Source of the DNA: Escherichia coli
GTDB taxonomy: Bacteria > Pseudomonadota > Gammaproteobacteria > Enterobacterales > Enterobacteriaceae
Length of the DNA stretch: 14,611 bases
Direction: 5' to 3' (one strand)
Assembly: GCF_003334255.1 (NCBI RefSeq)
Contig: NZ_QOWU01000079.1
The position numbers and the translations under genes are program-made. The stretch's first letter is position 1. The number at the start of each line of letters is the position of its first letter. Positions 7,538-8,026 of this stretch are shown here, piece by piece. The notes under the pieces are model-generated. The model searched no databases. It had not been told where the DNA came from and saw nothing but the letters and a program-made list of their open reading frames with translations.

Positions 7538-8026
7538 ATGAGTCTGATGAACGATGTACAGAAATTCATTGAAGCCCATCCGGGGTGTACTTCAGGTGAC
7601 ATTGCGGATGCTTTTGCTGGTTACTCACGACAGTGCGTTCTGCAGTCAGCAAGCAAGTTACGTCAGAGTGGCCGTGTGGCTCACTGTTGTGAAGGGAAAA
7701 CACGCAGACATTTCCCACACCAGGCTGAGAGAGCGCAGGAGGCGGAACCGCAACCAGTTCTTGAAACCATACCTGTGCGCAATTTCTATGTCGGCACTAA
7801 CGATCCCCGGGTGATTTTGTGCCTGACCCGCCAGGCGGAAGAACTGGAGTCCAGGGGCTTATACCGTCGTGCTGCAACCGTGTGGATGGCGGCATTCCGT
7901 GAAAGCCACTCCCAGCCAGAACGAAACAATTTTCTGGCGCGTCGTGAGCGGTGCTTACGGAAAAGCAGAAAGCGCGCTGTAGCGGGTGATGAGTGGTATC
8001 TGTCAGGGAATTACGTGGGGGCTTAA
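7538..8026 (+). CDS. PerC/Pch-family transcriptional regulator-like protein with an N-terminal winged-helix-like extension (162 aa)
   Basis: ATG at 7538 with AGGGGG 6 nt upstream (the track starts at GTG 7532); C-terminal motif LESRGLYRRAATVWMAAF matches the PerC signature (LExxGLWRRAAxRW). Confidence 0.55.
   Translation: MSLMNDVQKFIEAHPGCTSGDIADAFAGYSRQCVLQSASKLRQSGRVAHCCEGKTRRHFPHQAERAQEAEPQPVLETIPVRNFYVGTNDPRVILCLTRQAEELESRGLYRRAATVWMAAFRESHSQPERNNFLARRERCLRKSRKRAVAGDEWYLSGNYVGA

Follow-up and report, generated by a model that had tools for sequence, protein, structure and literature searches.

The window, by which we mean the whole stretch of 14,611 nucleotides of Escherichia coli DNA that was analyzed, comprises the early region of a lambdoid prophage, which resembles those of the phages SfV, mEp460 and ST64B and of the K-12 cryptic prophage CPS-53. 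PHROG matches and RefSeq annotation delineate a CI-like repressor gene on the minus strand (3293-3985), followed by a Cro-like gene (4083-4343), a CII/YmfL-like gene (4336-4893), a Rha/Ant-like gene on the plus strand (4890-6038), a small ORF and a first replication-initiator protein gene (6256-6555). Then comes a further replication-initiator gene (6552-7535, plus strand; PHROGs 270, 26426 and 1701; DnaD-like PHROG match), whose equivalents in relatives carry the Pfam domains HTH_36 and Phg_2220_C. This lies directly upstream of the gene that is the subject of this report (7538-8026, plus strand). The latter is in turn followed on the same strand by a gene for a phage Dam-like N6-adenine DNA methyltransferase (8026-8679; PHROG 111 and RefSeq annotation) and one for a winged-helix protein of 108 residues resembling the N-terminal domain of LexA (8676-9002; PHROG 362 'transcriptional repressor'), downstream of which lie RusA, KilA-N, DUF968 and antiterminator Q genes. 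The initial annotation of this DNA had placed the gene in a prophage replication-nin block, and the PHROG matches and RefSeq annotation agree with that setting.

The operon is tightly packed throughout: at every junction between 4336 and 9394, adjacent genes either share 1, 4 or 8 nt or nearly abut. At the 5' end of the gene under study, the stop codon of the initiator gene (TGA, 7533-7535) is separated by 2 nt from the ATG at 7538, while at its 3' end the TAATG at 8024-8028 is shared with the methyltransferase start. This tight arrangement (TGA-nn-ATG and TAATG) is consistent with the earlier proposal that the gene is translationally coupled to its neighbors; however, the signal is not specific to this gene, as the whole operon is packed in the same manner. 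A scan of the window found no sigma-70-like promoter site adjoining the gene. The GenBank record of SfV places a predicted dam promoter in the 3' end of the ortholog, equivalent to about 7935-7961 here, which exists as an annotation only. The gene is an internal cistron of the CI-controlled early-right operon, rather than a stand-alone accessory gene outside a phage early operon. Given this internal position and the lack of a promoter-like site nearby, its expression should occur mainly after induction.

The LexA-N-like protein shows a weak PADLOC match to a CARF-associated model (E = 3.6e-4), which probably reflects a shared winged helix. It recurs one or two genes downstream of the gene under study in several divergent relatives (L006, L009 and L010).

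Several RNA and repeat features were also detected in the window. An isrK Hfq-binding RNA (5250-5326, plus strand; 58.9 bits) and a C4 antisense RNA (5351-5438, plus strand; 80.7 bits) both score above their Rfam gathering scores, and at the 3' end of isrK lies a terminator-like hairpin with a T run after it (5307-5320). Both RNAs lie inside the 382-codon ORF at 4890-6038, which is annotated in RefSeq as a 'Rha family phage regulatory protein' but whose Rha/Ant-like domain starts only at about residue 211. Hence, the 5' part of this ORF may be an sRNA module like that of P1 immI or Gifsy-1 rather than coding sequence. Past the Q gene and a terminator-like site (12168-12185), in what is probably the leader region of the late operon, the STnc100 sRNA family is matched over its full length (12336-12541, plus strand; 143 bits). 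Within the initiator gene, a cluster of short direct repeats (7025-7131, plus strand) comprises 2.7 copies of TACAGAGATTAC at 7100-7131 with a related copy at 7025, along with two copies of ACGTnAnAACGGAACA at 7035 and 7058, and falls in the part of the gene that specifies a TEITTEITTE peptide repeat linking the initiator's two domains. In lambda, the ori iterons lie inside gene O, and by this resemblance the repeat cluster is a candidate origin.

The gene, its start codon and its orthologs

The ORF that had been called at 7538-8026 on the plus strand is real: it runs from ATG 7538 to the stop codon TAA at 8024-8026 and encodes a YfdN-type PerC-family protein of 162 residues. The RefSeq start of the ortholog (WP_012601564.1) and that of K-12 b2357 correspond to GTG 7532, 6 nt earlier, which overlaps the upstream stop codon (GTGA) and gives a protein of 164 residues. 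To discriminate between these, we considered the upstream sequence and a family alignment of 40 full-length relatives with 23-90% identity, which were obtained by word-indexed and exhaustive protein searches. A Shine-Dalgarno-like AGGGGG (7527-7532, plus strand), with its GGGGG run at 7528-7532, can be read within the 3' end of the replication gene, 5 nt before ATG 7538, and all 40 divergent relatives show a start of the form M-S/T/N at the position of this ATG. The conserved start together with the Shine-Dalgarno spacing favors ATG 7538 over GTG 7532. In light of the conservation of the protein, it is very unlikely that it is not produced at all.

The protein matches PHROG 1324 ('transcriptional activator') over the full length of its 162 residues (E = 1.4e-75). 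It is a YfdN-type PerC-family member of a lambdoid prophage, and as such the product of an ordinary, annotated gene: over a 751-nt stretch around it, several E. coli chromosomes show 99.2% identity and carry the annotation 'PerC family transcriptional regulator' (WP_012601564.1). RefSeq and phage records alike carry the PerC family annotation, and the assignment is thus already known rather than a discovery. Homologs with at least 80% identity are present in 2680 of the 5426 complete E. coli genomes, or about half of them, and others are found in active phages, namely SfV (orf40), SfII, SfIV, mEp460, ST64B (sb43) and Stx2c phages; in an Stx2a phage that serves as the Eru6 reference, an IS disrupts the homolog. 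Compared with K-12 YfdN (b2357), 147 of 164 residues (90%) are identical when the count begins at the GTG used by RefSeq. The genes yfdO-yfdN-yfdM occur in this order in CPS-53/KpLE1 of K-12, with yfdO being the remnant of a replication protein and yfdM that of a methyltransferase, and the replication-PerC-methyltransferase order is found in the window and in the related locus L001. By its full-length identity and the same flanks, the gene is the counterpart of K-12 yfdN and belongs to the YfdN orthologous group.

In earlier work, yfdN was described as 'the K12 unique PerC homologue' and was deleted as a precaution before the effects of Pch on ler::lacZ were measured (Uhlich et al., 2018; PMC5931665). 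Our literature search found no paper testing a YfdN-type protein; YfdN figures in screens only, namely through a glycogen phenotype on overexpression, in transcriptome lists and in a predicted interactome cluster. A sequence search of the PDB recovered no relative of solved structure, the sole match being a designed repeat protein (E = 0.49), and PADLOC returned no defense-system match.

Among the candidate relatives, P0190 (with six 'PerC-like' stretches) and P0209 were discarded as unrelated repeat proteins. The high-identity 'N-only' or 'C-only' sequences P0123, P0125 and P0137 have the appearance of copies that were frameshifted or truncated, not of single-domain genes in their own right, and probably underlie PHROGs 23071 and 2608.

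Domain architecture of the YfdN-type protein

An AlphaFold2 model computed with the 40-sequence alignment (mean pLDDT 82), in conjunction with profile and fold searches, divides the protein into four segments, all encoded on the plus strand: an N-terminal winged helix-turn-helix domain (residues 1-60; 7538-7717), a linker (residues 61-89; 7718-7804), a PerC/ANR-type three-helix domain (residues 90-143; 7805-7966) and a C-terminal tail (residues 144-162; 7967-8023). The two-domain layout is retained in relatives with identities down to 23-30%.

The N-terminal domain has no Pfam family. It is modeled with pLDDT values of 86-92 and comprises the helices H1 (3-13), H2 (19-25) and H3 (31-44), and a beta wing (47-52 and 55-60); in the predicted model, these three helices and the beta-hairpin wing superpose on solved winged helices, in keeping with a MarR/ArsR/BlaI-like fold. 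Earlier, winged-helix character had been ascribed to about 100 N-terminal residues: a winged helix is indeed predicted, but it takes up only 60 residues, the remainder being linker. Lysine or arginine is found in 40-75% of the sequences at positions 31, 36, 40, 46, 49 and 57, which map to H3, the recognition helix, and to the wing. These basic residues are compatible with DNA binding but are no proof of it, and protein-binding winged helices, such as the N-terminal domain of MotA, RPA32C and those of ESCRT-II, score equally well in the fold search. Searches with the whole model yield generic winged helices only, since the N-terminal domain dominates the query. The linker that follows is acidic (pI 4.7) and proline-rich, with pLDDT values below 50 at residues 64-75, and in the alignment it is gapped or absent in relatives of about 140-150 residues; it is probably disordered and variable in length across the family.

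The PerC/ANR-type domain is the most confidently modeled part of the protein (pLDDT 94-97), with helices at residues 90-106, 109-122 and 126-143, and includes the motif LESRGLYRRAATVWMAAF (residues 103-120; nt 7844-7897). The match to the PerC signature that had been read from this segment holds at the level of the whole domain. A search with the Pfam PerC model (PF06069) is significant (E = 8e-9, 36.1 bits), aligning residues 98-151 with positions 5-58 of the 90 in the model, and 38 of the 40 family members match it individually at E <= 0.001. Two single-domain PerC-family proteins encoded on E. coli plasmids (104 and 102 residues; core residues 5-55) can be aligned over 50 residues with a profile built from the C-terminal domain (54 and 49 bits), and BLASTP against the 104-residue protein yields an identity of 39% over 51 residues (E = 1e-8). 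The 50-residue profile alignment and the three confident helices show that the homology covers the entire helical core and extends beyond the RRAA motif, rather than being a chance match of a few residues. In the family alignment L103, R111 and A112 are invariant, while A100, A113, R136 and C139 are nearly so. The domain is very basic (pI 11.1). The protein departs from the small single-domain layout with an N-terminal core, being 162 residues long with the core at residues 90-143 after the winged helix and the linker.

The same domain also shows affinities to the ANR family. The ANR model (NCBIfam NF033650) scores 22.2 bits with the full protein and 25.3 bits with the C-terminal fragment, both short of the curated cut-off (32 bits); scores at the same level, also under 32, are obtained with the two single-domain PerC-family proteins (20.8 and 23.3 bits). 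The published ANR signature reads A-x3-E-x7-A-x3-W-x2-A...R...C, and its positions are matched exactly here by A100, E104, A112, W116 and A119, and with a shift of 1-2 residues by R136 and C139.

The C-terminal tail bears the motif [WC]-x-L-[AS]-G-[NR]-[YF]-x-G (WYLSGNYVG in the window), which is among the best-conserved parts of the protein and is kept in relatives with identities down to 23%: L155 is found in 28 and G157 in 35 of 38 sequences, and Y/F159 in 38 and G161 in 36 of 40. The tail lies largely outside the Pfam PerC match, has low confidence in the AlphaFold2 model and is missing from both single-domain PerC-family comparators (104 and 102 residues). In its sequence it looks like a partner-docking peptide.

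Genomic contexts in distant relatives

We analyzed the gene neighborhoods on the encoding contigs of nine relatives with 23-34% identity, together with those in the phage records. The usual gene order is an initiator of the HTH_36/Phg_2220_C type, the winged helix-PerC gene, a DNA methyltransferase or a LexA_DNA_bind protein, RusA, DUF968 and Q. The initiator is directly upstream in the window, K-12, SfV, ST64B, F1055 and four divergent metagenomic relatives (25-34% identity). There are exceptions to this order: in one relative the gene comes directly after a lambda-P homolog, in the position held by ren in lambda; in another it follows RecT; and in yet another it is found by itself behind AlpA, in an element that carries an integrase. 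As copies are found after a lambda-P homolog, RecT and AlpA, these contexts indicate that the gene is a module at the replication/nin boundary that is not bound to one replication system. The possibility that the YfdN-type protein replaces a lambda-P-type helicase loader was considered and is weakened by the relative in which it directly follows a lambda-P homolog.

The next gene downstream is, in several of the loci, a DNA methyltransferase belonging to one of three unrelated families, namely MT-A70, Dam (PF05869) and D12 (PF02086) (L005, L008, L009, L010, L015 and 8026-8679 of the window). This variety could mean that orphan methyltransferases are swapped at a recombination hot spot, or that the genes are functionally linked.

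Functional considerations

The explanation that we favor, at roughly an even chance, is that the protein is an early phage regulator, with the winged helix acting on DNA and the PerC/ANR-like domain acting on host proteins of the H-NS or AraC type. Once repression by CI is lifted, ribosomes that have translated the replication gene would carry on into this one, and the location of the gene downstream of the CI/Cro switch points to action early after induction or infection. The three-helix domain would work through protein contacts with nucleoid-associated or AraC-type regulators, as do its characterized relatives: this is suggested by the anti-silencing activity of Pch and by the binding of ANR proteins to AraC-type activators and H-NS (see below). 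The winged helix would tether this activity to DNA. Such an early regulator could thereby remodel host nucleoid or regulator complexes in the course of lytic development, with any effects on virulence or other host promoters arising as a side consequence, either when cells are induced or through cryptic remnants that have become derepressed. Against this explanation, the binding of H-NS or AraC-type proteins is extrapolated from relatives whose identity over 50 residues is about 40% at most, and the conserved C-terminal tail is left unexplained. The conserved place after the replication initiator could also point to a replication-linked role.

The latter role, which we consider quite unlikely, would be that of an accessory to the HTH_36/Phg_2220_C initiator, which might, for example, organize the origin complex or recruit host replication proteins, with the tail as its docking peptide. 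It would account for the tight packing of the gene directly behind the initiator gene in the window, K-12, the phages and four divergent relatives, and for the resemblance of the conserved short C-terminal motif to a partner-binding peptide. Moreover, the early regions of these phages have no separate helicase or loader gene, and the replication proteins of the non-lambda 'Eru' regions are uncharacterized (PMC8951638). However, relatives are also found after RecT, after AlpA and after lambda P, where the O/P-type module is complete and the gene occupies the ren position, and the homolog is interrupted by an IS in an Stx2a phage that is taken as the Eru6 reference. Furthermore, PHROG, profile, PDB and fold searches recovered no similarity in sequence or fold to a known loader or primosome protein.

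A further alternative overlaps with the early-regulator explanation and differs from it only in the sign of the effect: the three-helix domain might sequester a host or phage transcription factor, acting as an ANR-like anti-activator or repressor with a net negative outcome comparable to that of Aar or EcCIMP1_025. The consistent, albeit sub-threshold, matches to the ANR model and the match to the published ANR signature are in line with this, as are the silencing of LEE1 by EcCIMP1_025, itself annotated as a PerC family protein, and the placement of YfdN by a structure-based interactome, a prediction only, in a 'negative regulation of transcription' cluster. Yet the scores of 22-25 bits fall short of the cut-off of 32, ANR proteins are single-domain proteins of less than 10 kDa and the window has no AraC-family gene; on balance this alternative, too, appears rather improbable.

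It is decidedly doubtful that the gene is a lysogenic-conversion regulator in the manner of Pch or PerC, expressed from the prophage copy in the lysogen and switching on ler/LEE1 or further virulence promoters of the host. The PerC core is common to these proteins across all three helices, homologs are found in Stx2c and Stx2a phages and in Shigella serotype-converting phages, and the deletion of yfdN by Uhlich et al. prior to their ler::lacZ assays shows that the possibility has been taken seriously. Nevertheless, the gene lies in the interior of a CI-controlled early operon with no promoter-like site near it, it occurs commonly in commensal and K-12 backgrounds that have no LEE, and its relatives outside of group 1 do not activate the LEE or even repress it. 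The identity to the single-domain PerC-family protein amounts to 39% and is confined to the core, and the architecture differs in the additional winged helix and tail.

Returning to the early-regulator explanation, cross-talk from phage to host of the kind proposed in the initial annotation is weakly suggested as a possibility, chiefly where cells have been induced or where the source is a decayed prophage, and the sign of any effect on host promoters cannot be predicted from the relatives. It is conceivable, though on the whole unlikely, that YfdN-type proteins constitute a distinct, DNA-tethered class of PerC/ANR proteins, in which a possibly Ren-related winged helix would bring an H-NS-/AraC-binding module to specific sites and the conserved tail would dock a third partner; if so, prophage induction could broadly rewire host silencing and virulence regulation.

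The family is very common: phages of the Stx2c, SfV and ST64B types carry members of it, as do 2680 of 5426 complete E. coli genomes, and its Pch and ANR relatives control virulence via H-NS and AraC-type regulators. An effect on host regulation, if true, would connect prophage induction to host gene silencing, whereas the absence of any effect would be one more case in which the label 'PerC family transcriptional activator' is not to be read as 'LEE activator'. The identification itself adds little, and what interest remains attaches to the two-domain architecture and the conserved tail.

Comparison with known systems

EPEC PerC and EHEC PchA/B/C activate LEE1/ler, relieving silencing by H-NS; Pch acts as an anti-silencer of H-NS complexes and relieves silencing by H-NS, StpA and Hha (PMC4764244). 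These proteins (PF06069) are likewise encoded on mobile elements and share with the YfdN-type protein a homologous three-helix core with the pattern A-x3-E...GL-[YWF]-RRAA-x2-W...R-x2-C. However, they measure about 90-105 residues, in contrast to the 162 of the YfdN-type protein, lack a winged helix and carry the core N-terminally. The contexts also differ: pchABC are self-promoted morons, whereas the gene in the window is internal to the early operon downstream of the CI/Cro switch, and the gene for the 104-residue single-domain PerC-family protein adjoins an nleG effector gene on a plasmid rather than residing in a phage early operon. The assignment of the protein as a Pch ortholog was rejected, as the 39% identity to this 104-residue protein holds over the 51-residue core only.

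PerC-like proteins of PICI elements, such as PchE (ECs1588) and EcCIMP1_025, also belong to the PerC family, are carried by mobile elements related to phages and have effects that are non-canonical. LEE1 does not respond to the PICI PerC-like genes of EDL933 and CFT073 and is repressed by EcCIMP1_025, and PchE represses curli and enhances flagella; more generally, PerC relatives outside of group 1 fail to activate the LEE, or repress it. Published assays of these relatives show that the PerC fold does not predict LEE activation. The PICI context is that of an AlpA/integrase island, unlike the lambdoid early operon in the window.

The ANR family (Aar, Cnr and Rnr; NF033650) has three short helices with the conserved A, E, A, W and A in the same spacing as in the YfdN-type protein. 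Aar consists of three helices with no apparent DNA-binding capability and binds both the AraC-type activator AggR and H-NS (PMC4983702, PMC5570504). Unlike the gene under study, ANR proteins are single-domain, smaller than 10 kDa and accompany AraC-family genes; no such gene was found in the 14,611-nt window.

For the N-terminal domain, a lead is lambda Ren (PHROG 142), of which residues 1-58 show weak, colinear similarity to the winged helix at 7538-7717. The similarity is sub-significant (PHROG E = 0.0025; 7.9 bits in hmmsearch against Ren alone; hhalign E = 0.0022 with a probability of 13%), and we regard a relationship as a lead only. Ren (lambda 40280-40570) occupies the same slot, being the first gene after the replication genes and having an overlapping start, but it has no PerC domain, unlike the YfdN-type protein.

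The closest known counterparts are K-12 YfdN and the phage orthologs, SfV orf40, ST64B Sb43 and those of mEp460, SfII and SfIV, which share the same neighbors and the same RefSeq annotation. While K-12 yfdN resides in a decayed prophage with truncated neighbors, the copy in the window lies in a seemingly intact early region; in all else of substance they are alike.
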